Shown here piece after piece: positions 2 to 53,799 of a DNA stretch of 64,000 bases. Within the stretch, counting starts at the first letter, position 1, and the number at the start of each line of letters is the position of its first letter. The notes under the pieces are model-generated. The model had not been told where the DNA came from. It saw nothing but the letters and a program-made list of their open reading frames with translations, and did not search any database. This stretch comes from an uncultured Candidatus Saccharibacteria bacterium (lineage in GTDB: Bacteria > Patescibacteriota > Saccharimonadia > Saccharimonadales > UBA10212). The stretch covers positions 213 through 64,212 of the forward strand of contig CAZUXR010000001.1 of the NCBI GenBank assembly GCA_964624785.1. Direction: 5' to 3'. A program made the translations under genes and the position numbers.

Positions 2-814
2 CGAAAATACGCGCTAAATTTAACTGTGGCCAACCAATATATTGCCCAGATGAGCGAAGAGGTACGCAGCGCCGTATTCGGCAACGTAGGAACGGTAATT
101 TCGTTCCGCGTAAGTCCAGATGACGCGCCGTTTTTGCAAAAATATTTTGAACCGCAGTTCGAGGCAGGGGATATAGTGCAGCAGCATAACCGCTACTTTA
201 TAACCAGTATGACTATCGGCGGAGAAAAGGCTCCGGCGTTTTCTGCCAAAACCCTTAACCTGCCAACTCCTCCTGGCGATTTAACGCCACAAATTATAGA
301 TGAATCCCGCCAGCGCTATGCAAAAGATCGCCAGGCCGTAGACGATGTAATCCGAAGTAACATTATAAATCAAACCATCGCTGGGGAGCCATCGAACCGA
401 CCATCAACTACTAAAGAACCCCAGCAAAAACCAATAGTGAGCCAAGCTGCACCCGCCGTGGACAAACCTAAGGCCCCCGCCCAAAGTACGCCGCCAGCTC
501 AAGCTGGCAACAAACCCAGGCCGCTAGGCAAAGTTGCTTCTACGTTAGTAAGGGCGGCTGTAAATGGTGTTGATTCGGCCTCGATGCAAGTCAGAGAGCC
601 CGAAGCCGGCCAGCAAGAAACCAACAAACCCAAGCGCCGCCGAACTCGCCGTGGGCGCGGAGGCGGCCAAAAATCACCCGATCCGCCGCAGCAACAGCAA
701 TTCAACCAGCATCAACAAACTCACCAAACACCCCACGAACCTAAAGTAATACATCCATCCAGCAACTCATCAGGCAAAACCCCAAACGAAGAACACACCA
801 TCCACCTCCGTTAG
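2..814 (+). CDS. C-terminal part of a VirD4/TraG/TraD-like type IV secretion coupling ATPase (5' end lies outside the window) with a long Pro/Gln/Lys/Arg-rich tail
   Basis: The frame is open from nt 2 (RKYALNLTVANQYIAQ...), so the GTG at 26 is not the true start. NQYIAQMSEEVRSAVFGNVGTVISFRVSPDDAPFL resembles the conserved C-terminal block of T4SS coupling / TraM-recognition-domain ATPases. Residues encoded after about nt 420 are low complexity. Confidence 0.5.
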   Translation, partial: RKYALNLTVANQYIAQMSEEVRSAVFGNVGTVISFRVSPDDAPFLQKYFEPQFEAGDIVQQHNRYFITSMTIGGEKAPAFSAKTLNLPTPPGDLTPQIIDESRQRYAKDRQAVDDVIRSNIINQTIAGEPSNRPSTTKEPQQKPIVSQAAPAVDKPKAPAQSTPPAQAGNKPRPLGKVASTLVRAAVNGVDSASMQVREPEAGQQETNKPKRRRTRRGRGGGQKSPDPPQQQQFNQHQQTHQTPHEPKVIHPSSNSSGKTPNEEHTIHLR

Positions 815-935
815 TTTTTGCATTATTGTTGGTTTAGTGTTAGAATATTGTTAGTTTGCTGAGCAGGGATGCTTCACGCGAATTCGCACACCCCATGAAC
901 GGGGCACACAACTGGGAAAGGGACGGTTTATAGCA

Positions 936-1301
936 ATGAACATTCTGCTTCACTGGGCACTGATATTCGCCTGTACGAGCATTGTCTGCTTCGTGGGGTC
1001 ATCGGTGCTCGATCGGTACTGGTGCCCCATCTTCGAACCTGAATGGCCGTTCACTGTTCTGGCCTTTGGGTCGGTGATGCCCGGCTTACTTGCCAGCATG
1101 TGCCTGGTGGCCTTCGTCGTAAGGGCAACCGATTTTTGGTTGCTCCCCATCACAGTGGTTTCGGGTCTGATGCTTGGATTCTTCTATTTGGTTGAGGATG
1201 ATGATGAGTACCTCGCCGCGCTGTCCGGAGCCAATGCGATGCTTGGTGGCAGCATAATCGCCGCGATCGGGGCAACAATCCCACCACCACCCTTTCTATA
1301 G
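936..1301 (+). CDS. hypothetical small membrane protein (about 4 TM) inside high-GC islet 1
   Basis: 121-aa ORF with hydrophobic segments. A hand count of nt 1021-1080 gives 35/60 G+C, against about 45% in neighbouring genes. No recognisable family. Confidence 0.45.
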   Translation: MNILLHWALIFACTSIVCFVGSSVLDRYWCPIFEPEWPFTVLAFGSVMPGLLASMCLVAFVVRATDFWLLPITVVSGLMLGFFYLVEDDDEYLAALSGANAMLGGSIIAAIGATIPPPPFL

Positions 1302-1609
1302 GGAGATAGGGGGCATCCCACCAACGAACGGGCCGGAGGCAAGGTGTGCGAGGTAATCCATCTCAGCAGACCCCTTGCTTCCGGCAGAAGTACTAAGTTA
1401 AATTTTATAACTGTATGAACATTTTGCGAACACGGTAATGGGCTTGGGTTTTATCGTGGAAGACAATATAGATTTATTCCTCACTAAAACTCTTAGTAGC
1501 AGGCGAGAAAGCTGTAATAAAAATAAATACGAATAATTAGCAGAGAATTTAGCGGCGAGCTAGTTACAAAAAAGTCAGGGGGGAATGTAGAAACAGAGCT
1601 GTGAACATA

Positions 1610-2022: not shown

Positions 2023-2877
2023 TTACTTATAAAAGACTTTACCTTCAACTCTAGCATCAAGGTACTGGCTGGGTGTAGTTTTAGTGATTTCGAACTGGTG
2101 ACGCGCAGCCATAAACTGCCCTGCCTGACGATCAACCTTGCCACCTAAAAAGAATTTAACATAATAGGGTTGATCTGCGGTTTGTAAATCTAACTCCTGG
2201 GCGCGTACCGGTAAACTGAGTGATTTTACAGGAATTTTAGCCGACTTACAGATGGAAAGAAGCTGGTTTGTAAAATTAACGTTTGCCCCGCTCATAATTG
2301 GCTTGCCGCGCGTAACCTTAAAGCTAGACTGGTCCGTTATAACCGGAAGACCCTTCGTTACTCCAGGAAAACTAGAAGCAAGCCCAACAGCTATCCCATC
2401 GGTATCAATAATATATAACTGGCCGCCACTACTAACCACAAAGCTCGGCACCGATATCGTAATATGTAGCTTTGGAGTATGGTCTAGTAGGGGCAGTTCT
2501 ATCTGTAAATTAGATATTTCCGGAAATTTAGATTGTAGATTTTTAGTAATTTGATCTTCGTCCAAGCTAATCTTATTATGATTTTTTATACTACCAAACG
2601 CATCGGTCGCCGCTGATTGATAAGAACTCGATGGTCGGTAAGCCTGGCTAGAAACATTTACCTCTGGATTGGAGCCAAGAACCATACTGTACACGAGTCC
2701 GAAAATTATGCTTCCTAAAATGATTAGATCGATCGTACGGTTAAGAAATACTCTGAAGAAACCACGATTTTTAGGACGTTTCTTAGGATTAGAATCATCT
2801 TTTTTGCCGCTCGCCGAACGATAGTAGGTTAACGGAACTCTGCCTCTTGCTCTAGACTTTGGTTTTCTATCGCTCAT
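2023..2877 (-). CDS. ftsQ: FtsQ/DivIB-like cell division protein (N-terminal basic tail, single TM, POTRA-like region)
   Basis: It lies directly after murG in the dcw cluster. It has a TM segment (LIILGSIIFGLVYSMVL) followed by a beta-rich region (LHITISVPSFVVSSGGQLYIIDTDGIAV) typical of FtsQ. Confidence 0.55.
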   Translation of the reverse strand: MSDRKPKSRARGRVPLTYYRSASGKKDDSNPKKRPKNRGFFRVFLNRTIDLIILGSIIFGLVYSMVLGSNPEVNVSSQAYRPSSSYQSAATDAFGSIKNHNKISLDEDQITKNLQSKFPEISNLQIELPLLDHTPKLHITISVPSFVVSSGGQLYIIDTDGIAVGLASSFPGVTKGLPVITDQSSFKVTRGKPIMSGANVNFTNQLLSICKSAKIPVKSLSLPVRAQELDLQTADQPYYVKFFLGGKVDRQAGQFMAARHQFEITKTTPSQYLDARVEGKVFYK

Positions 2878-11951: not shown

Positions 11952-14900
11952 TCAGCGCTTGTGGTTTGTTAGTAGATAATCTTGCCAGGCTTTTGGCTGT
12001 GAACCATCAATGTCTAAGTCGCCCAAACACTTAACTAGCAGGCGACCGAGTTCGCCGTTGGTAATTAGTGGCAAGTGATTATCGATTGCTACACGCCGGA
12101 TAATGTAGCCGTCGTTTCCATCCAGCCCGTCTTCGGCCGGAATACTGATCATCAGCGATATTTTTTGGTCCGCAATTGCGGATTCTACGCTAGGTTCGCG
12201 GCGGTCTTTGATTTTATAAAGAAGCGTCGTCTGCACCCCGTGCTCTTTAAATAAGTCGTGCGTACCGGGAGTAGTATATACATTCCAGCCCTTTTTGATA
12301 AGCTTTGCCGTAACTTCAACAAACTTGAATTTATATTCATCCGGCAATGCGAGAAACAAATTTTTGCCTTTTAGATTTTGTTCGGTCGCCAACCACGAGC
12401 GCATAAATGCCTCGTCCAAGCTGCTGCCAAAGCAGGCCACTTCCCCGGTAGAAGCCATCTCTACACCCGCCACTGGATCGGCACCTTTTAGTCGATTGTA
12501 AGAAAATTGCGGACTCTTCACTCCAACGTAATCGTACTCCAAAGTTTGGTAGCGAATATTATTTTCTATTCCTAAAATCGCTTCTGCAGCAATTTGTATA
12601 AAGTTGTGCCCGGAAATTTTAGAAATAAACGGAAACGAACGCGACGCCCGCACATTGCATTCAATTACTTTTAGCTGGTTATCTTTGGCAATAAACTGCA
12701 CGTTGAACGGGCCGGTAATGTTTAGGTTGGCGACAATTTGGCGCGTAATATTTTTGGCTCGACGGACTGTTTCTAGATACAAACTCTGCGCCGGGAACAC
12801 CACAGTCGCATCGCCGGAATGTACGCCTGCATTTTCTACGTGCTCGCTTATGGCATATATAATCAGCTGGCCATTACTGGCAACTCCGTCAATTTCTAAC
12901 TCCTTCGCATGAGTAATAAACTGCGAAATCACCACCGGATGGTCGGGCGACAGTTTTGCTGCTTCTTTTAGATACCGGGCAAGTTCTTGCTCGTTACCAA
13001 CTACGTTCATCGCCCCGCCGGACAAAACATATGATGGGCGAATCAAAACCGGATAGCCAACACGAGCCGCAAAAACTTTGGCGCGCGCAAGGCTAGAAAC
13101 TTCTTGCCAGGCGGGTTGATCAATATTGAACTCGCCGAGCATGGCCGAAAATTTTTGCCGGTCTTCTGCGCGGTCGATGTCTTTAGCTTTTGTTCCAAGA
13201 ATCGGATAACCTGCCCGCTCTAGCGGCAACGCAAGGTTGTTAGCAATCTGCCCACCCACGGACACAATAATTCCCTGCGGGCGTTCAAAATCAGCAATAT
13301 CACGCATTCGCTCCAGCGTTAATTCCTCAAAATACAAGCGGTCGGAACGATCAAAATCGGTCGAAACCGTCTCTGGATTGGAGTTAACAATGATTGTTTT
13401 GCGCCCACGGGCCTGCAAAGTTTTAGCAGTATTAACCGCACACCAATCAAACTCCACCGACGAACCGATGCAATACGGACCAGAACCAACCACAACAACG
13501 GCCTTACCGTCCAGTGGCTCAATGTCGTCTTCCTGCCCGTGGTAGGTCGTATAAAGATAGTTAGTTTTAGCGTCAAACTCGCCAGCAAGTGTGTCGATTT
13601 GTTTAATTACGGGTTTGATTCCGAGCTTTAGTCGGCGTCTTCTAATTTCTTCTTCTGTCTTACCTTTTATAAAAGCCAGTGCTTTGTCGGAGAATCCGAC
13701 TTGCTTAGCCGCCCGCAGTAAATCCTCGTTCAGATTATTTTTTTTGACCTCGCTTTCCATATGCGCGATGTCGGCAACTTGACCCAAAAACCATTTGTCG
13801 ATTTTAGACAGATCGTGAATTTTGTCCACGCTTACCCCACTTTTAAGCGCCTCATAAATTGCAAACAACCGCCGATCAGTGGCACGAGTAATTTCTTCTA
13901 ATGGATCGTCAAAATCATGCAGCTCAGTGCTCAGTCCGTCGGCACCAATATTTAGCATACGCACTGCTTTTTGCAGAACTTCTGGGAACGACCGCCCCAA
14001 AGCCATAACTTCTCCCACGCTCTTCATTTCTGATCCAATTTGATGGTCGCTAGATTTTAGTTTGGTTAGATCCCAACGCGGCATTTTTAGTGCCAAATAA
14101 TCCAGCGCCGGTTCGTAAAATGCCGATGTTTGACCAGTCACAGCGTTTTTAAGCTCAGGCAAAAGCTTGCCCAAACTCAGTTTGGTTGCCACGAATGCCA
14201 GCGGATAGCCGGTCGCTTTAGACGCTAGCGCGCTGGAACGGCTAAGCCGAGCGTTAACTTCAATAACCCGATAGTCGCCATTTTCTGGGTTAAGGGCGTA
14301 CTGGATGTTGCACTCGCCAATTATTCCTAAGTGGTTAATGGTTTTGATCGCTACTTCACGCAAATGATGATATTCGCGGTTAGTTAAAGTTTGCGACGGT
14401 GCCACCACAATGCTCTCGCCAGTGTGAATTCCCATTGGGTCAAAGTTTTCCATGTTGCAGACCGTAATTGTGTTGCCTGCTCGGTCGCGCACAACTTCGT
14501 ATTCGATTTCTTTCCAGCCGCGCAGGTATTCTTCTATCAAAATTTGTGGGGCCGCTTTAAACGCCGGCGCGGCTTTTTTGCGAAGTTCGTCTGCATTGTT
14601 TACCCTGCCCGACCCCAGTCCGCCAAGACTAAAGCCCGAGCGCAGCATTACCGGATAGCCGATTTTTTCGGCCGCCGCAAGCGCTCCGCTTAAATCATAC
14701 GTGGCGATACTGCGAGCTGTTTTAATATCAATCTGTTTTAGCGCATCTTTAAAAAGTTCGCGGTCCTCGGTTATGTTGATCGTGTCGACCGGAGTACCCA
14801 GAACTTTAATGCCAAGTTTTTTAAACACGCCGATTTCGTATAATTTTAGTCCCAGATTTAGCGCGGTCTGGCCGCCAAAACTTAGCAGTACGGCGTCTGG

Positions 14901-15140
14901 TTTTTCGCGTTTTAGAATTTTGGTAACTTCGCCCACGTTAAGCGGCTGAAAGTAAACCCGGTCCGCCATATCGTGGTCGGTCTGCACGGTCGCAATGTTT
15001 GGATTAATCAGCACCGTTTCTATCCCATCCTCTTTTAATGCTTTAATGGCCTGCGATCCAGAATAATCAAACTCGCCAGCCTGGCCTATGCGCAGACCGC
15101 CAGAGCCGAAAATGATCGCCTTCCTTATTTTTGTGCTCAT
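11952..15140 (-). CDS. carB: carbamoyl-phosphate synthase large subunit
   Basis: 1062 aa with duplicated ATP-grasp halves and N-terminal GSGGLRIGQAGEFDYSG. Its start overlaps the carA stop (ATGA). Confidence 0.95.
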   Translation of the reverse strand: MSTKIRKAIIFGSGGLRIGQAGEFDYSGSQAIKALKEDGIETVLINPNIATVQTDHDMADRVYFQPLNVGEVTKILKREKPDAVLLSFGGQTALNLGLKLYEIGVFKKLGIKVLGTPVDTINITEDRELFKDALKQIDIKTARSIATYDLSGALAAAEKIGYPVMLRSGFSLGGLGSGRVNNADELRKKAAPAFKAAPQILIEEYLRGWKEIEYEVVRDRAGNTITVCNMENFDPMGIHTGESIVVAPSQTLTNREYHHLREVAIKTINHLGIIGECNIQYALNPENGDYRVIEVNARLSRSSALASKATGYPLAFVATKLSLGKLLPELKNAVTGQTSAFYEPALDYLALKMPRWDLTKLKSSDHQIGSEMKSVGEVMALGRSFPEVLQKAVRMLNIGADGLSTELHDFDDPLEEITRATDRRLFAIYEALKSGVSVDKIHDLSKIDKWFLGQVADIAHMESEVKKNNLNEDLLRAAKQVGFSDKALAFIKGKTEEEIRRRRLKLGIKPVIKQIDTLAGEFDAKTNYLYTTYHGQEDDIEPLDGKAVVVVGSGPYCIGSSVEFDWCAVNTAKTLQARGRKTIIVNSNPETVSTDFDRSDRLYFEELTLERMRDIADFERPQGIIVSVGGQIANNLALPLERAGYPILGTKAKDIDRAEDRQKFSAMLGEFNIDQPAWQEVSSLARAKVFAARVGYPVLIRPSYVLSGGAMNVVGNEQELARYLKEAAKLSPDHPVVISQFITHAKELEIDGVASNGQLIIYAISEHVENAGVHSGDATVVFPAQSLYLETVRRAKNITRQIVANLNITGPFNVQFIAKDNQLKVIECNVRASRSFPFISKISGHNFIQIAAEAILGIENNIRYQTLEYDYVGVKSPQFSYNRLKGADPVAGVEMASTGEVACFGSSLDEAFMRSWLATEQNLKGKNLFLALPDEYKFKFVEVTAKLIKKGWNVYTTPGTHDLFKEHGVQTTLLYKIKDRREPSVESAIADQKISLMISIPAEDGLDGNDGYIIRRVAIDNHLPLITNGELGRLLVKCLGDLDIDGSQPKAWQDYLLTNHKR

Positions 15141-16243
15141 TTTATTAGCTCGTAAAATTTAGTGAATAAATGATTAGTATCGGTGGGCCCGGGGGCGGCT
15201 TCCGGATGAAACTGCACTGCAAAGAATGGTTTGGATTTATGAATAATTCCTTCTACGGAATTATCATTTAAGTTGCGGAACCATACACGCCAGCCACTTG
15301 GTAGTTTTTTATCGTCAAGCGCGTAACTGTGATTCTGGCTGGTAATGTAGCATTTACCCGAGCCCGATTCCTGGCATGGCTGGTTGTGGCCACGGTGCCC
15401 AAACGGTAATTTATAAGTAGAAGCGCCGGCCGCCAATCCCATAATTTGGCTTCCCAGGCAAATCCCAAAAACCGGTTTGTTACGAGCTAAGACTTTCTTG
15501 ACGATCGCCACCGTGGCCCTATAATCCGTTGGATCGCCCGGGCCGTTAGACAAAAGTACGCCGTCGTATTCCTCGCCGCTAAAATCATAGTCCATCGGTA
15601 CATGCTTAACCTGCACGGGCAGCTTTAGCAGCTCGCGCAAAATGTTGGCTTTTGCTCCGCAGTCTACCAAAATAACCTTCTTTTTTTGGTTTGCATTGTA
15701 AATTTCTGGACGAGCGATCGTTACGAACTTGGGCTCAAAGCTGAATTTTTTTGGATCAACTTTGCCAGCACTAATCGCTCCAAGCATTGTGCCGCGAGTT
15801 CGCAAATGTTTGGTTAATGCCCTGGTATCTACTCCAAAAATGATCGGCACGCTCTGGCTTTTTAGCCATTCCAATAGCGAACTTTTGGCCTTCGCATGAG
15901 CGTAATGCACGGCCGCCTCACTCACAATAACGCCGCTAGCTTGGATTTTGCCAGACTCCCCGTCATCCGGATTAACCCCGTAATTTCCAATCAGCGGATA
16001 GGTAAAAGTTAGTATTTGCCCGGCGTAACTTGGATCGGTCAGTGACTCAACATAACCACTCATTCCGGTATTAAACACCACCTCGCCCTCAAACACACCG
16101 TCTTGCCACATCGGCTGCCGTCCACTAAATTCTCTACCATCGCCGAGAGTTAGAATAGCTTTTTTAAAAGAAAAATCGCCCCTTGCGGAGCGATTATTAT
16201 CCGATTTTGCTTTAGAATAAGTTGTTAGATTTTTACTCAACAC
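15137..16243 (-). CDS. carA: carbamoyl-phosphate synthase small (glutamine amidotransferase) subunit
   Basis: GATase triad context (GICLGSQIM, HRGHNQP, FHPEA). It is translationally coupled to carB. Confidence 0.9.
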   Translation of the reverse strand: MLSKNLTTYSKAKSDNNRSARGDFSFKKAILTLGDGREFSGRQPMWQDGVFEGEVVFNTGMSGYVESLTDPSYAGQILTFTYPLIGNYGVNPDDGESGKIQASGVIVSEAAVHYAHAKAKSSLLEWLKSQSVPIIFGVDTRALTKHLRTRGTMLGAISAGKVDPKKFSFEPKFVTIARPEIYNANQKKKVILVDCGAKANILRELLKLPVQVKHVPMDYDFSGEEYDGVLLSNGPGDPTDYRATVAIVKKVLARNKPVFGICLGSQIMGLAAGASTYKLPFGHRGHNQPCQESGSGKCYITSQNHSYALDDKKLPSGWRVWFRNLNDNSVEGIIHKSKPFFAVQFHPEAAPGPTDTNHLFTKFYELIK

Positions 16244-16370
16244 TTAAATATAGATTGTACTAGAATATCTCACGGCCCGCAAATTTTATGCACGTACTCA
16301 CTACATCGTGGACACTTGGCGACCCAACAGCTTTAGCCATACAAGAACCACCCCTAAATTGAAGTTTATT

Positions 16371-16414
16371 CAAATTATCATAAAATCGGCGATCGCCGAT
16401 TTTATGATAATTTG
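16371..16414. repeat. 44-bp perfect palindrome with GCGATCGC core
   Basis: CAAATTATCATAAAATCGGCGATCGCCGATTTTATGATAATTTG is its own reverse complement. It lies in the divergent carA / 16477 promoter region. Confidence 0.9.
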
Positions 16415-16476
16415 TGTTAGTTTTTACACCATTCATGCTTATAAGATTAAAAAATCGTATATAATCAAGGCTATTC

Positions 16477-17319
16477 ATGAATCAAAAAGTTTTAATGTCT
16501 GGGGCGGAATATTTTACGGATGAATTCGCCATTAATCCTTACTACGGCTCCGGTCCTGCGGTAGATACCGCCGCAGCTGTCGCCGAACACAAGTCAATCC
16601 AAGCCGCACTTAAAAAAGCCGGGGTAGAAATAGTTAAGGTTGACGCCCCGCCTGGCTGCCAGGACGGCGTCTACACTGCCAACTGGGGACTTTGCCGCGG
16701 CAACAAGTGCGTGTTGTCTTCCCTGCCAAACAAACGCTCGAGCGAGGAACCTTATGCAGAAAAAGTACTCCATGAACTCGGCAAAGAAGTCACTAAACCA
16801 CCTATGCGTTTTAGTGGCCAGGGCGACGCCTTGCCCTGCGGCGATTACTTATTCGCCGGATCTACCTACCGCACCGACCCAGCAATTCACAAATTTTTAG
16901 CCGACACTCTTGGTTTTAAAGTAATTTCCTTGCAAACCGTTCCTAAATTAGACGATTATGGCCAACCACTGATCAACTCCGTTACTGGCTGGCCGGACAG
17001 TTTTTTCTACGACATCGACCTGGCGCTGTCCGTACTCACACCCAACCTTATAGCATGGTGCCCAAGCGCGTTTACGCCGCAAAGTCAGGACAAAATCAGC
17101 GCCTTGCCGATGGGCAAAATCGAAGTCAGCCACAAAGAAGCCGTCGAAAATTTTGCCTGCAACCTACTTAGCACCGGTCAAACTGTGGTAATGAGCAACA
17201 GCGCGCCGCAGTTTAAAGCAGCCATAGAAGCCCGCGGCCTAAAAACCATTACGCCGCGCATCACAGAACTCGGCAAAGGCGGCGGCTACATCCGCTGCAC
17301 CACTCTTACCTTGGAATAA
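16477..17319 (+). CDS. guanidino-group modifying enzyme superfamily protein (amidinotransferase / DDAH / arginine deiminase-related fold)
   Basis: 280 aa ending ...GKGGGYIRCTTLTLE (C-terminal catalytic Cys motif of the superfamily). The N-terminal VLMSGAEYF...INPY is typical of this family. Confidence 0.6.
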   Translation: MNQKVLMSGAEYFTDEFAINPYYGSGPAVDTAAAVAEHKSIQAALKKAGVEIVKVDAPPGCQDGVYTANWGLCRGNKCVLSSLPNKRSSEEPYAEKVLHELGKEVTKPPMRFSGQGDALPCGDYLFAGSTYRTDPAIHKFLADTLGFKVISLQTVPKLDDYGQPLINSVTGWPDSFFYDIDLALSVLTPNLIAWCPSAFTPQSQDKISALPMGKIEVSHKEAVENFACNLLSTGQTVVMSNSAPQFKAAIEARGLKTITPRITELGKGGGYIRCTTLTLE

Positions 17320-17360
17320 ATTTTTGCGTTATTAGTTAATTAGTAGTATAATATCGTTAT

Positions 17361-17404
17361 CTTTTGCGGTTCGCCAGATTTGGCAGATCCAAAAGGAGTT
17401 TTTT
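17361..17404 (+). terminator. candidate intrinsic terminator after the 16477 gene
   Basis: Stem CTTTTG (17361-66) / CAAAAG (17390-95) with inner stem GCCA/TGGC, followed by a T6 run at 17399-17404. Confidence 0.4.
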
Positions 17405-17407
17405 AAC

Positions 17408-17710
17408 AAGGCAGGGTTTTTATATGCTCAAGGAACGCTTTTCCGGGTAGTGCTTCTTCTTTTTAGGGAACCAAACCTCAACCGACTGGAGCAAAAAAGC
17501 AATGAGCGATGATGACTACATCACAGAAGAGATCGATGCGATGCTCAGGAACTACGCAGCCTTGACGGGCAGGGTCAGGAGGTTCATCCGACGACTATTC
17601 CGAGCGCGCTAGGCGCTGCGCCTAACGCGCAGCGATACAATCAAAATCTCTCGCCAGGACGGTGCCGCCCCAAAAGCATCGTCCTGGCACAGCCACTAAA
17701 ACCCTGCCTT
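17408..17710. other. high-GC islet 2: 303-bp module closed by a 13-bp inverted repeat
   Basis: AAGGCAGGGTTTT (17408-17420) pairs with AAAACCCTGCCTT (17698-17710). The interior is GC-rich (nt 17581-17640 hand count 37/60) and has a GCCAGGACG...CGTCCTGGC hairpin. Confidence 0.7.
17502..17612 (+). CDS. possible 36-aa micro-ORF (acidic N-terminus, Arg-rich amphipathic C-terminus)
   Basis: MSDDDYITEEIDAMLRNYAALTGRVRRFIRRLFRAR. A GGAG lies 12 nt upstream. It is below the ORF-track cutoff and there is no homology evidence. Confidence 0.25.
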   Translation: MSDDDYITEEIDAMLRNYAALTGRVRRFIRRLFRAR

Positions 17711-17742
17711 AATTTTTTATAACACAACTAATTCACCGCATT

Positions 17743-17897
17743 GGACTTTCGCACTTTTCCATAGCAACAGACCATAGCTGACTGACCAACAAACTGCCTA
17801 TCTTTTCTCGGTGTAGCTATAGCTACTCCTCAAAAACCTAAACAGTTTTCGTCCAAACCAGCTACACCCTGTTATCTACAGAAAAGTGCGAAAGTCC
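17743..17897. repeat. 155-nt stem-closed element in the pyrB leader (17-bp perfect terminal inverted repeat)
   Basis: GGACTTTCGCACTTTTC (17743-17759) pairs with GAAAAGTGCGAAAGTCC (17881-17897). There is an inner stem GGTGTAGCT / AGCTACACC. Confidence 0.8.
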
Positions 17898-17968
17898 TAT
17901 AAAGCCCGCACGCAAACAATTTGAGTTTTACCAGCTAATAATAAATACTGGGACATAGAAAACAGGAG

Positions 17969-18904
17969 GTGCGTATGCATGTGATTTCTATTAACCAGTT
18001 TAGCGTGGGTCAAATGGACAAGCTTTTTAAGCGAGCTGACGAAATTAGGCAAGAGCATTCTGCGGTCGCCGGTCGCGCCAAGCTGGCCAAACTCCACTAC
18101 GGCAAACAACTTTGCAGCATTTTTTACGAACCATCCACCAGAACACGAACCAGTTTTGAAACAGCCGCGCTTAAGCTGGGAATGGGCGTGGTTAGTACAG
18201 AAAACGCCCGCGAATTTTCTTCTGCCGCTAAGGGCGAAACTATCGAAGACACTTTTCAAATGTTCAATCAATACCACTTTGACGCAGTAGTGATGCGTCA
18301 TCACGAAGCCGGTGCCGCCGCCCGCGCGGCTTGCATTAGCACTGCCCCGCTCATCAATGCCGGCGACGGCAAAGGCGAACACCCCACCCAAGCCCTGCTT
18401 GATGCCTACACAATCAAACGTTGCCACGGCCGCCTAGATAATTTAAAAATTGTAATCGGCGGAGACCTTAAATACGGCCGCACCGCTCGCTCGCTCGCCC
18501 TACTGCTGTCTAATTTTAAAGACAATCACATCACCTTTGTTTCTACAAAAGCTTTTAAAATTGGTGACGACATAAAATCAGCGCTTGTTAGTTCTGGTAC
18601 ATCGTTTTCCGAAACCGACAGCATGGCAGATGCGTTCAAGAATGCCGATGTAGTCTACTGGACCAGGCTGCAAAAAGAGCGACTAGAAGACGGTGAACAA
18701 GACCCAGGCAACGGATTTATTATTGATACTAACGCTCTAAAGCTTATGCCAAAAAACACAATAATTATGCACCCATTGCCCCGCGTGGACGAAATTACCC
18801 CAGAGGTAGACAGCGACCCGCGAGCAAAATACTTTGAACAAGCCGGCAACGGCCTCTGGCTAAGAATGGCGCTTTTAGATATGCTTTTGACTAACAAATT
18901 ATGA
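17969..18904 (+). CDS. pyrB: aspartate carbamoyltransferase catalytic subunit
   Basis: STRTR motif (EPSTRTRTSFE) and HPLPR motif (HPLPRVDEI). GGAGG SD upstream; ATG at 17975 is an alternative start. It overlaps pyrC by ATGA. Confidence 0.9.
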   Translation: MRMHVISINQFSVGQMDKLFKRADEIRQEHSAVAGRAKLAKLHYGKQLCSIFYEPSTRTRTSFETAALKLGMGVVSTENAREFSSAAKGETIEDTFQMFNQYHFDAVVMRHHEAGAAARAACISTAPLINAGDGKGEHPTQALLDAYTIKRCHGRLDNLKIVIGGDLKYGRTARSLALLLSNFKDNHITFVSTKAFKIGDDIKSALVSSGTSFSETDSMADAFKNADVVYWTRLQKERLEDGEQDPGNGFIIDTNALKLMPKNTIIMHPLPRVDEITPEVDSDPRAKYFEQAGNGLWLRMALLDMLLTNKL

Positions 18905-19950
18905 GTAAAATAATTACTCTTCCCGGCCTGATCGACATGCATGTGCATCTGCGTGACCCTGGCCAAACTCATAAAGAAGATTTTTACAGCGGCTCGTCCG
19001 CAGCGCTTGCCGGCGGGTTCACAACGGTTTTTGATATGCCAAACAACTTGCAGCCTATCACCACCGCGCAGCGATTAGATGCCAAAACTGCCAGCGCAGC
19101 CAAACAAACTGCGTGCGACATCGGCTTTTATTTTGGAACTCTGGGCGATAATTTTGATCAGTTCGCTAAAGTCGTAGATAAAGTGCAAGGGTTAAAAGTT
19201 TACCTAAATTTAACTACCGGCGGATTTATAATCAACAAAGACAAACTGACCGATATCTACAAAGCATGGCAGATTAATAAACCAATTCTTTTGCACGCCG
19301 AAGACGATGTATCTGATTTGGTTTTGTCGACTCTGCGCGCCAACCCAAAACCAACCCACATTTGCCACGTATCCAGCCGCGCAGAATTAGAATTCGTAAT
19401 GCGCGCCAAAGAAGAAGGACTTCCAATTACCTGCGGTATCACGCCGCACCATCTATTTTTAACCAACAAAGATGCCGAATTGCTTGGCGCCTATGCCCAC
19501 ATGAAGCCATATTTAAAAACCAAAGCCGAGCAAGACTTTTTATGGCAACATTTGGACGCTGTAGATGTAATCGAATCCGACCACGCTCCGCACACTAGGG
19601 ACGAAAAAGTTAGTACTGAGCCACCATTCGGTGTCCCCGGCCTAGAAACCACCCTGCCCTTAATGTTAACGGCTGAAGCCGAAGGCAAACTAAACCGCAA
19701 AAAACTTCTTGATCTGCTGCATTATTCCCCAGCTAAAATTCTTGGCTTAAAAATTGACAGGGAAACGTTTATCAAGCTCGACATGAGCGAATATCAAATT
19801 AGCAACGAGGGTTTGCAAACCAAATGCGGCTGGACACCATTTGCCGGCCGACGCGTAATCGGCAAAGTCCAATCCGCAACTATCCGCGGAGTTAGTGTCT
19901 ACAACAAAGGAAGAATCCTAGTCTCACCCGGTTCCGGAAAAGTTTTATAA
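18901..19950 (+). CDS. pyrC: dihydroorotase (short form)
   Basis: N-terminal metal-binding motif DMHVHLRDPG and a later DHAPH motif. It is coupled to pyrB. Confidence 0.85.
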   Translation: MSKIITLPGLIDMHVHLRDPGQTHKEDFYSGSSAALAGGFTTVFDMPNNLQPITTAQRLDAKTASAAKQTACDIGFYFGTLGDNFDQFAKVVDKVQGLKVYLNLTTGGFIINKDKLTDIYKAWQINKPILLHAEDDVSDLVLSTLRANPKPTHICHVSSRAELEFVMRAKEEGLPITCGITPHHLFLTNKDAELLGAYAHMKPYLKTKAEQDFLWQHLDAVDVIESDHAPHTRDEKVSTEPPFGVPGLETTLPLMLTAEAEGKLNRKKLLDLLHYSPAKILGLKIDRETFIKLDMSEYQISNEGLQTKCGWTPFAGRRVIGKVQSATIRGVSVYNKGRILVSPGSGKVL

Positions 19951-20014
19951 AATGAAGAACCCCCGACGAGGCCAGGGGCCTTCAAGTCGGGGGGTTAGTG
20001 GGGGGCCTCCTCGC

Positions 20015-20221
20015 TCAGCTGGCGGGGTGAGTCCGTCTTGCTGGCGGGTTGTCAAGCCGGTCGTGCCAGCCAGGTTCTGAAACGTCGAGCTCTTGCTCAA
20101 GCTGGCGGACCTGCGCATCATGTCTGGCAATGACTGCAGCTGCACCGTCCCAGCCGTCACTGGGATAACTATTCATCAAGTACAGCCACCCTCGGCTGTC
20201 GGACTTGACTGCGTAGTTCAT
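20015..20221 (-). CDS. hypothetical 68-aa protein in high-GC islet 3
   Basis: The ORF shows strong G/C third-position bias (aac tac gca gtc aag tcc gac agc ...). nt 20041-20100 hand count is 36/60 G+C. An overlapping alternative ORF (19945..20160) cannot be excluded. Confidence 0.35.
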   Translation of the reverse strand: MNYAVKSDSRGWLYLMNSYPSDGWDGAAAVIARHDAQVRQLEQELDVSEPGWHDRLDNPPARRTHPAS

Positions 20222-20317
20222 TGACTGGCACCGAACCTTTCTTTTTGATTTGCAATTAAACTTCTGTCCAATCTGTTAAAAATTGTAGTCTAAATCTTGA
20301 CCTTTGCAAGCATAAGC

Positions 20318-21400
20318 CTAAAGAGCAGTTTTGATCTCGGCGGCTAGGTTTGGGTTCCACATCACGCCGGTAAGCCCCATCACAAAATCGGCGCCAGCTG
20401 CGCGGTGATCGTGGAAATCTTGGGCGTTCATAACTCCTCCAACCCCAATTATTTTAAAATCATAGCCAAACTCGTCACGATGTTTTTTAAGCCTTTTTAC
20501 CATATCAATAGCCAGCGGCTTTATTGCCGCCCCACTCACTCCGGCTTGAAGACGTGAATCGCCACCAGAAAATGCCTGCTTCCCATTCATGTCTACAATA
20601 TTCTGCGGCACGGTATTTATCGCGGTAATGCCGACCACTATCGGGCCAATCCGCCTAATAAAATCATGCAAATATTTATCGTCGCTTATATAAGAAATTT
20701 TTGTAATTAATTTTAATTTAGGGTAATTTCGCATTATTTCATGTACAATCTGGCTCGTAGTTTTAAGGTCAAAACAAAGTAGATTTGAATGTCCCTCATT
20801 CGGACAGCTCAGGTTTAGTTCGATGATTTTCGCACCAACATCCATTAACTTACCGATGCCTTCAATATGATCGTTAATGAATGCGCTATGTCCGCCAGCG
20901 GCAGGAATTGTGCCTTGAAAAGCGATTAGCAACACCTGTCCTTTGCCTATTAGCCTGAGTGATTCTTTGATTTCTTGCTGCCAAACTTCCGGCTCAAAAG
21001 AAGGAATTCCAAACGAGTTAGCTATGCTAAGTGGCGGCTCGAAATCATTTTTTACTTTAATCGACCTGCTACTCATAAGGTCGATATCACTAGCATCGAG
21101 CGGGTAGACATTGGGGTGATCGTGGCATGGATATTGGTGAGAGCGAACAGTTTTAAAAGTGACAATATCAAACCCGCGATCAAGCGCCGAAGCTATAAAC
21201 TTTGCTCTTGGCAGCGGCCCAGCAGCAATGCCAAATGGCGAATAAACAGGCGTGTCAAAAAAATCACACTGGGGCTGGCCGCTATTTTTGTATTTTAGTT
21301 GTTTGTTAAAGTCGCCAAACGGACCGTATTTAAGGTTATCTGCATAGCTGTATTTAGGATCATACAGCCATGGTGGTAATATTTGTCCCATGCTTCGCAC
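20318..21400 (-). CDS. pyrD: class 1-type dihydroorotate dehydrogenase-like flavoprotein
   Basis: ELNLSCPN active-site Cys motif, FGIAAGP, and C-terminal GVGGV...GADFV FMN-binding motifs. The ATG at 21391 is an alternative start to the GTG at 21400. Confidence 0.75.
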   Translation of the reverse strand: MRSMGQILPPWLYDPKYSYADNLKYGPFGDFNKQLKYKNSGQPQCDFFDTPVYSPFGIAAGPLPRAKFIASALDRGFDIVTFKTVRSHQYPCHDHPNVYPLDASDIDLMSSRSIKVKNDFEPPLSIANSFGIPSFEPEVWQQEIKESLRLIGKGQVLLIAFQGTIPAAGGHSAFINDHIEGIGKLMDVGAKIIELNLSCPNEGHSNLLCFDLKTTSQIVHEIMRNYPKLKLITKISYISDDKYLHDFIRRIGPIVVGITAINTVPQNIVDMNGKQAFSGGDSRLQAGVSGAAIKPLAIDMVKRLKKHRDEFGYDFKIIGVGGVMNAQDFHDHRAAGADFVMGLTGVMWNPNLAAEIKTAL

Positions 21401-22699: not shown

Positions 22700-22853
22700 C
22701 TAAAAATAAAGATGACCTGGACCAGAAATATGTAGAGCTCGCCGGAGGCAGAACAATACACATTTCTGGCACAGACCACGGGAACGAGCATCCTTGCTCT
22801 AGCTCCCGTGCCAGGATCAGTCTGTGTTTCAAGACGGGCGATGATTGCTGGCG

Positions 22854-23150
22854 CTACTCGACGGCAGCAAAGAACATCGTCAGTGCCGAGAGAACGGTCA
22901 GTAGCCCTCCGAACCCCCAGTAGCCGGCGATCGGCTCACTTCCGTGGCCCTGTGCCACGAAGTAACTCTGCGAATCAACGCCGAAGCCGGCGAAGACCGC
23001 GACAGCCACCAACCACAGCAGCGCCGCTGGCAAGCGCATCCACGAGTTCAACCCACCGGATTCCGCGGCGTAGATGAAGCTGAGGAGTGCTATCACTACC
23101 GGCAGCAACGCCGTAATGCACAGAAGTCCGACGCGAATACCATCCGACAT
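22854..23150 (-). CDS. hypothetical 98-aa membrane protein (3 TM) in high-GC islet 4
   Basis: Hydrophobic ORF. nt 22861-22920 hand count is 36/60 G+C. Several overlapping alternative-frame ORFs are typical of GC-rich DNA. Confidence 0.45.
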   Translation of the reverse strand: MSDGIRVGLLCITALLPVVIALLSFIYAAESGGLNSWMRLPAALLWLVAVAVFAGFGVDSQSYFVAQGHGSEPIAGYWGFGGLLTVLSALTMFFAAVE

Positions 23151-51168: not shown

Positions 51169-51420
51169 TCAGTTACGCTCGAAGGTCATGACCTTGACCA
51201 GCCTTTCCCACGCGGTCGTACCTGGCCAGCGCTTACGCGAGTTCCAGATAACGATGTAGACGAGGTTGCCAATGAGTACCAGAATAGTACCCAAGTTGCT
51301 TACAGCCCACGCCGCATCACCATGTCCTACGGCAAACAGACAGGCCGCAGCAATGATGATGACGACGAGGGGGGCAACAACAGTCCAGCACGCCTTTACA
51401 AAATTCACCTTTATTTTCAC
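51169..51420 (-). CDS. hypothetical 83-aa membrane protein (2 TM) in GC-elevated islet 5
   Basis: Hydrophobic ORF. Hand counts are 37/60 (51181-51240), 27/60 (51241-51300) and 34/60 (51301-51360) G+C. GC-rich hairpins lie downstream at 51030-51110. Confidence 0.4.
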   Translation of the reverse strand: MKIKVNFVKACWTVVAPLVVIIIAAACLFAVGHGDAAWAVSNLGTILVLIGNLVYIVIWNSRKRWPGTTAWERLVKVMTFERN

Positions 51421-52575: not shown

Positions 52576-52663
52576 GCGGAACTCCTTCGGAGTTATTTAT
52601 CATTTGCCGCTGCGTATTTTTCATTAATTTCATCATCTATCATTTTACACTTGAACGATACTA

Positions 52664-52747
52664 GCGTACAGCGGCCAGGGGTTAGCGGACAGGAATTTCG
52701 GATCTGAACGCTAAACGCTATACGCAGTACGCTAGCCGGTTTATATA
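52664..52747. repeat. heptanucleotide mosaic, copy D (partial)
   Basis: GCGTACA GCGGCCA GGGGTTA GCGGACA ... GAACGCT AAACGCT ATACGCA GTACGCT AGCCGGT TTATATA. The AACGCTA block shares about 30 nt with copy B. Confidence 0.65.
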
Positions 52748-52831
52748 AACAGATACGAAGTTCTAAATCTCAAGGATTAACCCCCGAGCGCTAAAAAAAG
52801 CGCCCGGGGTAATCCCCACAGCAGCAAACCG

Positions 52832-53473
52832 CTACAGCAGCAAACCGGCGCGCTCAGCTCTTTTCTGGAGTCGGTTGAAGTGACCGAGCAGGATGCGCGC
52901 TTCTTCTGGGTCCACCATCGTCTGGTCGACGCTGTTGAGCCCGTCGAGTCCGCGACCCAGCTCAAGTAAACCTTTACGGATCAGCCCGAGGGTGATCTCT
53001 CTGCGGTGAGTATCGGCATACTCACGGTCGGAGCCTGACAGCATGCGGATGACCTCGTCGTGGATCTTGTTGGAGTCGGCATCGAAGTCGAGCAGGATGC
53101 GCGAGGCCACACCATCGTCCTCGCGCACCAGCCCGAGCAGGATGTGCTCGGTGCCGATGTAGTTGTGCCCCAGGGCCAGCGCCTCGCGAAACGCCAGCCC
53201 GAGGACCTTCTTGGCCCTCGGGGTGAACGGGATCTGCCAGAAGGTGACCTCCTCGCCGGAACCGACGGCTCGCACGATCTGGACGCGCACGCGCTCGACG
53301 GTGATGTCGAGGCTCTGAAGGACCCGCGCGGCCAGGCCTTCCTCCTCGCGGAGGAGCCCAAGCAGAATGTGCTCGGTGCCGATGTAGTTGTGCTTGAGGG
53401 TTCTGGCTTCTTCCTGCGCAAGCATGACCACTTGCCGCGCCCGTTCGGTATACCTTTCGAACAACTTTCTCAC
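52832..53473 (-). CDS. stand-alone Clp N-terminal (double Clp_N repeat) domain protein, ClpC1-NTD-like, in high-GC islet 6
   Basis: FERYTERARQVVMLAQEEARTLKHNYIGTEHILLGLL ... IPFTPRAKKVLGLAFREALALGHNYIGTEHILLGLV closely parallels the actinobacterial ClpC1 N-terminus. There is no AAA+ module. The likely true start is the TTG at 53464, preceded by AGGTGA, giving MFERY... nt 53101-53160 hand count is 41/60 G+C. Confidence 0.8.
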   Translation of the reverse strand: MRKLFERYTERARQVVMLAQEEARTLKHNYIGTEHILLGLLREEEGLAARVLQSLDITVERVRVQIVRAVGSGEEVTFWQIPFTPRAKKVLGLAFREALALGHNYIGTEHILLGLVREDDGVASRILLDFDADSNKIHDEVIRMLSGSDREYADTHRREITLGLIRKGLLELGRGLDGLNSVDQTMVDPEEARILLGHFNRLQKRAERAGLLL

Positions 53474-53645: not shown

Positions 53646-53799
53646 GGCTTTGAGTTATGGTTTGTAGTTTATGGTTTATGGGCTAACCCTGAACACTAAA
53701 CGCTATCCGCTGTACGCTTTTCTTCATTCTCAATTCCCCATTCTGAATTCTAAATTCCTGGTATTTAAGCTCTGGGCTCTCAGCTCTTAGCTTCCCAGA
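53646..53799. repeat. phase-locked heptanucleotide mosaic, copy B
   Basis: 22 consecutive 7-mers in one register. The blocks are AGTTATG GTTTGTA GTTTATG GTTTATG, then GGCTAAC CCTGAAC ACTAAAC GCTATCC GCTGTAC GCTTTTC, then TTCATTC TCAATTC CCCATTC TGAATTC TAAATTC, then TTAAGCT CTGGGCT CTCAGCT CTTAGCT. It overlaps the last codons of the M16 gene. Confidence 0.8.

Follow-up and report, generated by a model that had tools for sequence, protein, structure and literature searches.

Horizontally acquired ORFan islets are small, strain-specific stretches of DNA with atypical GC content, GC3 and codon usage, and they occur preferentially close to the replication terminus. Saccharibacteria, which live as ultra-small epibionts, have reduced genomes, and gene transfer between them and their actinobacterial hosts has been reported by comparative genomics. 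A further class of acquired DNA comprises IMEX and the Acinetobacter-type pdif modules, in which cargo is integrated at, or bounded by, XerC/XerD sites. To our knowledge, the ways in which Saccharibacteria gain genes, and the identity of the hosts of their environmental lineages, are poorly understood.

Here we describe a GC-rich segment, islet 1, in a 64,000-nucleotide stretch of Saccharibacteria DNA (the window). Like the ORFan islets, islet 1 is sharply bordered and stands out in GC, GC3 and codon usage; it is missing at the syntenic site of relatives, and holds a single short ORF in a variable, terminus-proximal locus. It differs from them in its very small size (0.5 kb), in lacking a tRNA, an integrase, a transposase and direct-repeat borders, and in having no known donor homologue; moreover, such islets are unusually dense here for a reduced epibiont genome. 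The parallel with host-Saccharibacteria transfer is likewise partial: the recipient is a Saccharibacterium, and a sister islet encodes a Thermoleophilia-like ClpC N-domain, but islet 1 has no actinobacterial homologue, and the units seen here are sub-kilobase fragments rather than whole operons or metabolic genes. In common with IMEX and pdif modules, islet 1 is a small cargo near a dif-like site, and its inverted repeats hold the dif arm core TCGCACA; however, its borders lack complete 28-bp Xer sites and it is present in single copy, which places it outside the strict definition, and 225 bp, including a conserved module repeat, lie between it and dif. MITEs share with islet 1 a sub-kilobase size and imperfect inverted repeats near both ends, yet islet 1 carries an ORF, lacks a target-site duplication and occurs once, and its short repeats (10 + 9 nt) contain gaps and fall short of the right end. 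The window samples a genome that is unusually dense in tiny, compositionally foreign insertions without mobility genes, to which islet 1 adds that foreign DNA can lodge right beside the dif-like site of the chromosome.

Composition and borders of islet 1

The original prediction, made from the sequence, placed a compositionally foreign islet at 857-1373. Its left edge stands, whereas the true right edge lies at approximately 1385. As redrawn on the basis of composition and of its absence at the syntenic site of relatives, islet 1 spans 857-1385 on the plus strand, measures 529 bp and has a GC content of 56.3% (56.1% for 857-1373), compared to a window average of 45.9%. A recount returned the 35 G or C bases out of 60 that had been given for 1021-1080. 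The edges are sharp, as the adjoining native, AT-rich spacers have a GC content of only 21-24% (23.8% for 815-856 and 20.7% for 1386-1414, both on the plus strand). Within the islet, GC content is 55.7% in the non-coding 5' part (857-935), 54.9% in the ORF and 63.1% in the 3' part (1302-1385), and a k-mer scan of the window shows a trinucleotide anomaly peak at 900-1100.

The foreign character claimed for islet 1 is borne out by deviations in GC, GC3 and synonymous codon usage, and it extends to the non-coding parts. Across the window, the islet falls outside the host range: the GC3 of its ORF (ORF121, see below) is 0.656, while 48 reference ORFs average 0.457 ± 0.046 with a maximum of 0.555 (z = 4.3). 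The synonymous-codon LLR of ORF121 is -0.22, against -0.93 ± 0.115 for the host (z 6.2), and the best 121-codon chunk of the host reaches -0.62 at most. Furthermore, the ORF121 frame has the highest codon LLR among all six frames, and its codon positions follow the order GC3 > GC1 > GC2.

Insertion site and synteny

The gene to the left of islet 1, which had been taken for a T4SS ATPase gene, is indeed the 3' end (262 codons; 26-814, plus strand) of a native, conserved TrwB/VirD4-like ATPase gene, with a GC-rich low-complexity tail and yet a normal GC3 of 0.49. This 3' end is 70-77% identical at the nucleotide level to genes encoding proteins of ~870-900 aa in L002, L005, L007, L009, L010 and L011; the full-length relatives contain DUF8128, TrwB_AAD_bind and DUF87 domains, and the C-terminal ...LR* ending is common to L009 and the window. 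To the right, the long AT-rich gap of the original prediction proved not to be a gap, but a conserved AT-rich non-coding module with a dif-like site, which changes the reading of the insertion site. The module (1415-1992, unstranded) is bounded by the 17-nt direct repeats TGAACATTTTGCGAACA (1416-1432, the "right repeat") and TGAACATATTACGAACA (1975-1991), and is conserved, at a length of ~550-580 bp, across the Saccharibacteria sampled.

The distance from the ATPase stop codon to the right repeat of the module is 601 bp in the window, compared to 20-63 bp in nine related lineages (the relatives compared for this spacing being L111, L010, L108, L005, L121, L002 and L007/L011). Hence, islet 1 represents a lineage-specific insertion. 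The native spacers on its two sides sum to ~71 nt, which is comparable to the spacer of the relatives. Islet 1 is missing at the syntenic site in all nine lineages, which are distant relatives (FtsQ at most 51% identical), and a MurG scan of GTDB genomes returned no closer sister genome, the nearest FtsQ being 51% identical, so that an empty site in a true sister strain was not observed. Islet 1 occurs once in the window, and neither 131 Saccharibacteria loci nor the collections of metagenome, viral, phage and plasmid sequences yielded another copy. The direct repeats near islet 1 do not flank its ends, and a comparison of 856/857 with 1385/1386 accordingly shows no target-site duplication. 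Islet 1 contains no mobility gene, and the neighbours of all islets are housekeeping genes.

In relatives, the ftsQ-side spacer of the module carries differing cargo genes, while in L009 the place of islet 1 on the ATPase side is taken by an unrelated ORF of 223 aa. This locus is therefore a hot spot for gene flux.

ORF121, an orphan membrane-like protein

ORF121 (936-1301, plus strand) encodes an orphan protein of 121 amino acids in a frame that is open from position 855 (149 codons). Four hydrophobic helices are predicted both by hydropathy and in an AlphaFold model, the latter calculated from a single sequence and of low confidence (pLDDT 57.6). The protein contains no Lys, compared to 2.6-6% in membrane proteins of the host, and its two Arg and nine acidic residues form no clear positive-inside pattern. 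On direct reading, a weak Shine-Dalgarno-like motif lies ~12 nt from the ATG. The residue charge, the weak Shine-Dalgarno motif and the low pLDDT are all compatible with a non-functional ORF; ORF121 may be a working accessory membrane protein or a neutral scar, and we would give its expression an even chance and regard its functional importance as doubtful.

A word-indexed search of 5.8 billion clustered proteins yielded no homologue of ORF121, and a HMMER search of 1.84 billion representatives recovered only the query itself and two spurious matches within proteins of more than 2000 aa. In Pfam, the sole hit was DUF5989 at E = 0.04, under the cut-off, while NCBIfam and PHROGs gave no significant match and the best Foldseek hit of the model against the PDB had E = 2.6. 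Searches with the other five frames of islet 1 and with the 5'-extended frame of ORF121 likewise gave no homologue. At the nucleotide level, tblastn and blastn of ORF121 and islet 1 against phages and plasmids gave no match, nor did scans of metagenome and viral contigs with back-translated ORF121; the 131 Saccharibacteria loci contain neither an ORF121 homologue (tblastn) nor islet 1 DNA (blastn). A family confined to CPR bacteria, which would have spoken for a native gene, is therefore not what was found: ORF121 has no CPR homologue and, indeed, none of any kind in the databases searched. As no donor or homologue is available, the case for a foreign origin of islet 1 is made from composition and synteny.

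These same data bear on the view that ORF121 is native to this lineage, as an orphan gene that evolves fast or arose de novo, and that its odd composition reflects the amino-acid bias of membrane proteins or a local mutational bias at the terminus. The absence of homologues from all databases is what one would expect of a lineage-restricted gene, ORF121 is co-oriented with the upstream gene, and the relatives are too far off to exclude an old residence. However, the deviation holds in synonymous codons conditioned on amino acids (the z of 6.2 given above), extends to the 79 and 84 non-coding nucleotides of islet 1 (56-63% GC), and stops at abrupt edges, while other membrane proteins of the window show normal GC3 and the usual Lys content. 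In addition, five further islets carry the same signature, one of them demonstrably actinobacterial by sequence identity, and other Saccharibacteria DNA (951 kb) contains such islets ~20-fold less often. Together, these observations make a native origin of ORF121 improbable.

Inverted repeats and the 3' hairpin

The left inverted-repeat arms, GTTTGCTGAG (854-863) and TCGCACACC (884-892), lie in the 5' untranslated part (854-892, plus strand), and their respective partners are CTCAGCAGAC (1362-1371) and GGTGTGCGA (1343-1351). The repeat is imperfect and gapped, with one pair of 10 nt that has a single mismatch and a second pair of 9 nt. The right-hand arms lie 14-42 nt from the right edge, within the loop of a strong local hairpin (1332-1385, plus strand) that has a 16-bp outer stem and no U-tract and ends exactly at the right edge of islet 1. 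The gapped arm-to-arm alignment scores 23, compared to 13.2 ± 2.4 for shuffles (6 of 2000 as good or better), and in a genomic control 3 of 654 equally spaced pairs were as good or better. The bracketing inverted repeats that had been proposed are thus present, but they are weak as evidence, being modestly above chance (~0.3-0.5%) and picked post hoc.

Such repeats, if the TCGCACA copies were recombinase or transposase sites, could mark islet 1 as a small non-autonomous mobile element, either MITE-like or a Xer-dependent dif module/IMEX. They do bracket ORF121, and TCGCACA, which occurs four times in the 64 kb, clusters at 884, 1345 and 1613, the last of these within the dif-like site only 225 bp from islet 1. 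Both repeat 11-mers resemble the left arm of dif (8/11 and 9/11 on direct reading), and the 13-mer ATGAACATTYTGC is common to the start of ORF121 and the right repeat of the module. Against this, neither end of islet 1 has a full 11-6-11 site (the second arms match at 2-4/11 on direct reading), and the right arms sit in a hairpin loop and not at the terminus of the islet. The similarity between islet 1 and the module is not above background (best local score 21 versus a null of 21.9 ± 2.7), and derivation of islet 1 from the dif module, or a sharing of sites with it, was rejected accordingly. Furthermore, the conserved right repeat, which keeps its usual distance of 178-203 bp from the dif-like site, separates islet 1 from dif, and islet 1 was therefore not integrated at dif. 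Since complete Xer sites and a target-site duplication are lacking and no collection searched contains another copy, the strict form of a mobile element is refuted, and we consider this explanation very unlikely overall.

The region 1302-1400 folds at -39.8 kcal/mol (z -3.25). No terminator was called at 1332-1385, since the hairpin has no U-tract. RNA genes often form GC-rich islands in AT-rich genomes, and islet 1 could accordingly be imagined as a structured non-coding RNA gene, closed by long-range 5'/3' pairing, in which the ORF is incidental. Its plus strand has a minimum free energy of -213.6 kcal/mol (z -2.34) with paired ends, the minus strand reaching z -0.9. A z of -2.3 is, however, unremarkable for GC-rich sequence; Rfam gave no match either at gathering thresholds across the whole window or at permissive thresholds for 750-2050, and ARAGORN found no tRNA or tmRNA in the window. 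Since the GC content of the 149-codon open frame is also periodic by codon position, the codon bias is specific to this frame, and its product is regularly hydrophobic and helical, an RNA gene has hardly any probability in our estimation.

An attC/integron cassette was considered separately and rejected: the 3' palindrome at 1332-1385 is present, but the upstream inverse core is absent on direct reading. The only GTTRRRY motif, GTTAAAT at 1398-1404, lies 13 nt outside the stem and has no pairing partner.

Sister islets and a captured ClpC fragment

Islet 1 had been listed as one of six GC-rich islets in the window, three of them encoding membrane proteins. Five are clear outliers in composition and k-mer content; the islet at 17408 is the weakest (~180 bp, with a 36-aa ORF of GC3 0.73). 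ORF121, ORF98 and ORF83 are indeed membrane-like. In the remaining islets, ORF GC3 amounts to 0.62-0.69 (19945-20221), 0.747 (22854-23150), 0.631 (51169-51420) and 0.808 (52832-53473). Islets occur here at a density of 3-4 per 64 kb, compared to 2 per 951 kb in other Saccharibacteria loci. A search for direct repeats flanking islets 2-5 gave none, and scans of metagenome and viral data gave no relatives of ORF98 (islet 4, at 22700).

The islet at 52780 (ORF 52832-53473) encodes a ClpC N-terminal domain with 85-88% protein identity to Thermoleophilia ClpC, the named matches being from Gaiellales/Solirubrobacterales, and it is 81% identical in DNA to Thermoleophilia-type clpC. A high-GC actinobacterial donor of this islet is therefore demonstrated at the level of sequence identity. 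The possibility that it is a duplicate of a native gene was rejected, as a nearby 885-aa ORF is unrelated. The islet is a captured gene fragment (145 of ~830 codons), and "capture of small genes" may thus in reality be capture of DNA fragments. The proposed high-GC donor is shown for the ClpC islet; for islet 1 no donor homologue was found, and such a donor is inferred. That one islet can be traced to Thermoleophilia-type Actinobacteria suggests that fragments of host DNA are captured directly, and such islets may help in assigning hosts.

Mis-assembly, with high-GC reads of co-occurring Actinobacteria spliced into a Saccharibacteria contig, might be suspected, as the NCBI contig of 65,805 bp belongs to a metagenome-assembled genome and the ClpC islet shares 81% identity with actinobacterial DNA. 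It is nevertheless exceedingly improbable: this identity is far from the value expected of a chimera with a co-occurring genome, and the insertions are short and precisely intergenic with intact flanking genes. Moreover, a Logan contig of SRR9179559 (L001) matches both junctions of islet 1 at 100%, and Logan assemblies of two further runs (SRR9179560 and SRR9179561) contain the two junctions of islet 4.

Proposed origin of islet 1

We favour, as fairly probable when taken as a whole, a joint reading in which ~529 bp of foreign DNA of higher GC content were inserted in this lineage to form islet 1, with the origin and expression outlined here. The fragment would have entered a short, dispensable spacer between the ATPase stop codon and the conserved AT-rich module, in a terminus region that is presumably tolerant of such insertions, and would have carried in ORF121 together with the GC-rich hairpin without U-tract directly 3' of it. 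From its composition, and by analogy with the ClpC islet, we infer a high-GC bacterial donor, probably an actinobacterial host; the GC3 of ORF121 (0.66) is intermediate and not specifically Actinobacteria-like. Uptake was probably as naked DNA, and fixation is likely to have occurred through illegitimate recombination rather than through a transposase or integrase; the junctions of islet 1 bear no diagnostic recombination signature.

The ORF121 transcript would probably arise from read-through of the ATPase gene, from the TG-extended promoter-like site TTTGCA-18-TAGAAT in the native spacer (817-846, plus strand), or from both, and the 3' hairpin may then end or stabilise it ahead of the dif module. 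The inverted repeats most likely have no part in mobility, although they may provide a 5'-3' pairing of the transcript that competes with the 3' hairpin.

A broader and distinctly more tentative proposal, which we rate as possible but on balance unlikely, is that sub-kilobase pieces of actinobacterial-host DNA have been fixed repeatedly in intergenic spacers without mobile-element machinery, as competence-driven "host-DNA scars" that include islet 1. These may be likened to insertions of organelle DNA in nuclei. Were this the case, the ClpC piece would name the host lineage as Thermoleophilia, and the ClpC N-domain might have been exapted as a stand-alone ClpC-NTD decoy. If the process were also general, such islets could serve to identify the hosts of uncultured Saccharibacteria from the environment.

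A dif-like site at the probable replication terminus

The palindromic 11-6-11 site ACGTCGCACAA TGTATA TTTTGCGACTC (1610-1637, unstranded) within the AT-rich module resembles dif of E. coli, GGTGCGCATAATGTATATTATGTTAAAT (Kono et al. 2011, PMC3025954). The two share the 11-6-11 architecture, an identical central TGTATA, 16 of 18 core positions and occurrence once per genome, with 17 of 28 bases identical overall; the arms of the module site are more palindromic, and, unlike E. coli dif, it is embedded in a conserved module with direct repeats and a DnaA-box-like motif. With three mismatches allowed, the full site occurs in the window only at 1610-1637. Each of 128 loci has the motif once. At least 120 species genomes, nearly all from Saccharibacteria, possess a single copy each, none of them recurring among the 120 hits.

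In four complete or near-complete chromosomes the motif is positioned at 46.6-50.4% of the length, with one exception at 75.8%, on the assumption that deposited chromosomes start at the origin. As is the case for bacterial dif sites, the module site thus lies opposite the start of complete chromosomes, at the point on which GC skew and gene orientation converge; genes of either orientation have a negative GC skew on the plus strand. The ftsQ-like gene (2023-2877, minus strand) is the last of the division cluster mraZ-to-ftsQ, whose genes run towards the module. The AT-rich module with its dif-like site is thus probably the replication terminus. A literature search returned no report of dif in Saccharibacteria, nor of the terminus module or the SRR run, and none of the 20 window ORFs scanned is a tyrosine recombinase. 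The module and its dif-like site should help in curating CPR genomes and setting their orientation, as well as in tests of Xer-type dimer resolution in Saccharibacteria.

An RNA helix between the module blocks CAGGGGA and TCCCCTG was considered and rejected, as the variants mostly break the pairing and show no compensatory pattern. The module also contains TTATCCACA at 1820-1828 and a promoter-like site at 1911-1938.

A foreign islet beside the ATPase gene

Islet 1, a GC-rich segment that extends from 857 to about 1385, is real: an orphan islet, specific to this lineage, that was acquired horizontally. Its composition is foreign, it is an insertion relative to related genomes, it carries no mobility apparatus, and it lies at the probable replication terminus, beside a dif-like site. 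The original prediction of a compositionally foreign segment is borne out, its count of 35 G+C in 60 nucleotides at 1021-1080 being exact, and GC, GC3, codon score and trinucleotide scan all deviate. The GC content of 857-1373 is 56.1%, against 45.9% for the window, and the edges are abrupt, with AT-rich flanks of 42 nt (23.8% GC) and 29 nt (20.7% GC). GC elevation taken alone is little proof, and raw GC over-calls such islets, because the low-complexity, Pro/Gln/Lys/Arg-rich C-terminal tail of the ATPase (351-750) reaches 58% GC with normal GC3. The 121-aa ORF of the islet (ORF121; 936-1301, plus strand) has a GC3 of 0.656, compared to 0.457 ± 0.046 (maximum 0.555) in 48 reference ORFs. Its synonymous-codon log-likelihood ratio, conditioned on amino acids and thereby freed of membrane-protein bias, is -0.22, while host ORFs score -0.93 ± 0.115 and host chunks of 121 codons never exceed -0.62. 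The peak of the trinucleotide anomaly scan coincides with the islet, and the non-coding ends are GC-rich as well (5' 79 nt, 55.7%; 3' 84 nt, 63.1%).

ORF121, proposed as a multi-TM ORF, has four hydrophobic helices by hydropathy and likewise in the AlphaFold model (residues 2-29, 38-65, 70-86 and 90-114; pLDDT only 57.6). Starting at 855, its frame stays open over 149 codons, its codon positions follow the order GC3 > GC1 > GC2, and its donor-like codon score is the highest among the six frames; we have therefore treated the islet as coding DNA, and the evidence favours this, at least by origin. Rfam and ARAGORN returned no RNA gene match, and the folding of the whole segment has a z of -2.3 on the plus and -0.9 on the minus strand. 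That ORF121 functions as a gene is doubtful. The protein contains no Lys, two Arg and nine acidic residues without a positive-inside pattern, and the Shine-Dalgarno-like motif is weak. A search of 5.8 billion clustered proteins recovered only ORF121 itself, on a 994-bp Logan contig, and no homologue was found in a complete HMMER scan of 1.84 billion representatives, in Pfam, NCBIfam or PHROGs, in phages and plasmids, or among metagenome and viral contigs; fold comparison against the PDB gave no match.

Insertion at a conserved site

Comparison of FtsQ homologues and their contigs showed that the spacer is bounded on one side by mraZ, rsmH, ftsL, a PBP gene, mraY, ftsW, murG and ftsQ, and on the opposite side by dprA, topA, a sigma-70-like gene and a DUF8128/TrwB_AAD_bind/DUF87 ATPase gene of ~890 aa, both sets reading inward. 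The 3' end of this ATPase gene occupies 26-814 in the window. The lineages with this arrangement were identified as Saccharibacteria by a genome scan. In the nine related lineages where the ATPase adjoins the conserved module described below, 20-63 bp separate its stop codon from the module's right repeat; in the window this distance is 601 bp, and the native AT-rich remnants of 42 and 29 nt together correspond to the ancestral spacer. Islet 1 is thus missing at the syntenic site in these nine lineages, and neither ORF121 nor the islet DNA was found in 131 Saccharibacteria loci. Islet 1 and islet 4 (at 22700) are not assembly artefacts: Logan contigs of separate runs match the window with 100% identity across both junctions of each (SRR9179559 for islet 1; SRR9179560 and SRR9179561 for islet 4).

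A conserved dif-like module

The interval beyond the islet, originally described as a long AT-rich gap, proved on spacer alignment, followed by alignment of 113 distinct sequences, to be a conserved non-coding module of ~550-580 bp (1415-1992 in the window) among the Saccharibacteria sampled. It is bounded by 17-nt direct repeats (TGAACATTTTGCGAACA at 1416-1432 and TGAACATATTACGAACA at 1975-1991) and holds G- and C-tract blocks, a DnaA-box-like motif (TTATCCACA, 1820-1828), a promoter-like site (1911-1938) and an invariant dif-like palindrome at 1610-1637, ACGTCGCACAA-TGTATA-TTTTGCGACTC. The palindrome is laid out 11-6-11 like a Xer site and shares 17 of 28 positions with E. coli dif (sequence taken from PMC3025954); within the core, 16 of 18 positions agree. 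In the related locus L009, both arms carry an identical C-to-T change (ACGTCGTCAAA ... TTGTACGACGT).

At least 120 species genomes, nearly all of them from Saccharibacteria, contain the 24-nt core of the palindrome, each exactly once. Four complete or near-complete chromosomes have the core at 48.7%, 47.6%, 46.6% and 50.4% of their length, and a fifth at 75.8%. Of the window's coding bases, 82% are directed toward the module, and genes of either orientation show negative plus-strand GC skew; in most relatives tested, the skew switches sign across the module. Taken together, and on the assumption that the deposited chromosomes begin at the origin, site layout, position, gene orientation and skew point to a probable replication terminus that includes a dif-like site. 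The module could instead be read as a replication origin, a reading which is disfavoured because the genes converge on it rather than diverge.

The terminus spacer is also a hot spot for gene flux, as shown by its variable cargo on the ftsQ side and by an insertion on the ATPase side. Between ftsQ and the module, cargo differs by lineage (in the numbering of each locus: L002, 10943-11734; L005, 10909-13226; L009, 10899-11675; L010, 10902-14931; L012, 10885-12208) and is absent from L007 and L011. The sets comprise 50-aa and 192-aa ORFs; an ABC transporter with a 2'-5' RNA ligase; an OMP decarboxylase; a Cho-like nuclease with an MFS transporter and a 332-aa ORF; and a DAG kinase with a PAP2 phosphatase. 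On the ATPase side, L009 carries an unrelated, AT-rich 223-aa ORF (12269-12940) exactly where islet 1 lies in the window, with the module's right repeat on one side and the ATPase stop on the other.

Mode of insertion

We considered Xer-mediated integration and reject it: a full Xer-type site occurs just once in the window, the islet repeats are half-sites at best, the conserved right repeat intervenes between islet and dif, and islet-to-module similarity is at background level overall in a local-alignment null. Two short matches were observed: the start of ORF121 (ATGAACATTCTGC, 936-948) and the module's right repeat (ATGAACATTTTGC, 1415-1427) are alike at 12 of 13 bases, and three of the four TCGCACA motifs in the window lie at 884 and 1345 (islet repeats) and 1613 (dif-like arm). 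Given the background-level similarity, both are probably coincidence.

The inverted repeats proposed to bracket the ORF are both present (854-863 with 1362-1371; 884-892 with 1343-1351), but carry little weight. The gapped arm-to-arm alignment scores 23, against 13.2 ± 2.4 for dinucleotide shuffles (6 of 2000 as good), and 3 of 654 equally spaced genomic pairs match it: above chance, yet weak for a post hoc feature. The right arms are enclosed in a strong local hairpin (1332-1385), whose terminus is the exact right border of the islet; the folding energy of 1302-1400 is -39.8 kcal/mol (z -3.25). As it has no U-tract, it was not called as a terminator. Islet 1 has no target-site duplication.

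Saccharibacteria are naturally competent. The source of the islet 1 DNA was most likely a high-GC bacterium, probably an actinobacterial host, and after uptake it was probably fixed in a dispensable spacer by illegitimate recombination. Transcription of ORF121 could run on from the co-oriented ATPase gene or begin at a promoter-like site at 817-846, and the 3' hairpin may terminate or stabilise the transcript ahead of the dif module.

Sister islets and a captured ClpC fragment

Of the six mini-insertions originally proposed, five are clear compositional outliers and that at 17408 is weak; all islet ORFs show atypical codon usage (z 5-10). Their recurrence is upheld, with three to four per 64 kb here compared to two per 951 kb in 113 other Saccharibacteria loci by the same GC criterion. 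The neighbours are housekeeping genes (pyrB, pyrC-like, pyrD, tgt, NYN, prfB, M16 peptidase), with no integrase or transposase among them. The spacers between such genes hold GC3-rich mini-ORFs: a 98-aa membrane ORF without Lys in islet 4 (ORF98; 22854-23150, minus), an 83-aa membrane ORF (51169-51420, minus), overlapping soluble ORFs of 68 and 71 aa (19945-20221, minus), and a 36-aa ORF followed by GC-rich palindromes (17502-17612, plus). The four that are situated between co-directional genes all share the orientation of those genes. Metagenome and viral scans gave no relatives for ORF98.

The islet at 52780 holds a stand-alone gene for a ClpC N-terminal domain (52832-53473, minus; two Clp_N repeats; GC3 0.81). 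Its product matches the N-terminal domain of M. tuberculosis ClpC1 in the PDB (E = 8e-54) and is 85-88% identical to ClpC of Gaiellaceae and Solirubrobacteraceae (Thermoleophilia), and its DNA is 81% identical over 430 nt to the clpC 5' end on a contig of 68% GC that shows greA-lysS-clpC-radA synteny. The homology ends at about codon 145, followed by an unrelated 65-aa tail, so the captured piece is a gene fragment. A 30-nt direct repeat (52704-52733 and 53689-53718, 90% identical) lies on either side of the unit, and the left copy of the repeat pairs with 52661-52692 into a hairpin. The unit may serve as a ClpC2-like decoy, or may be no more than a captured fragment. The ClpC piece supports the proposed high-GC donor and also suggests capture of DNA fragments rather than of chosen small genes. 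Overall, the original interpretation holds in part: foreign origin and recurrence stand, an actinobacterial donor is proven for the ClpC islet only and not for islet 1, and the inverted repeats add little. Two by-products are of greater use, namely the dif-like terminus module conserved in Saccharibacteria and this Thermoleophilia-derived ClpC fragment.

Elsewhere in the window, a pyrimidine-synthesis set (11952-21400: carA, a 1062-aa ORF, pyrB, a pyrC-like amidohydrolase and pyrD) adjoins the division cluster; genes for making pyrimidines de novo are uncommon in Saccharibacteria. Among the relatives examined, lineages differ in the genes that lie upstream of the GH1 gene. A heliorhodopsin gene lies at 61071-61892 on the minus strand (Pfam PF18761, E = 1.2e-88).
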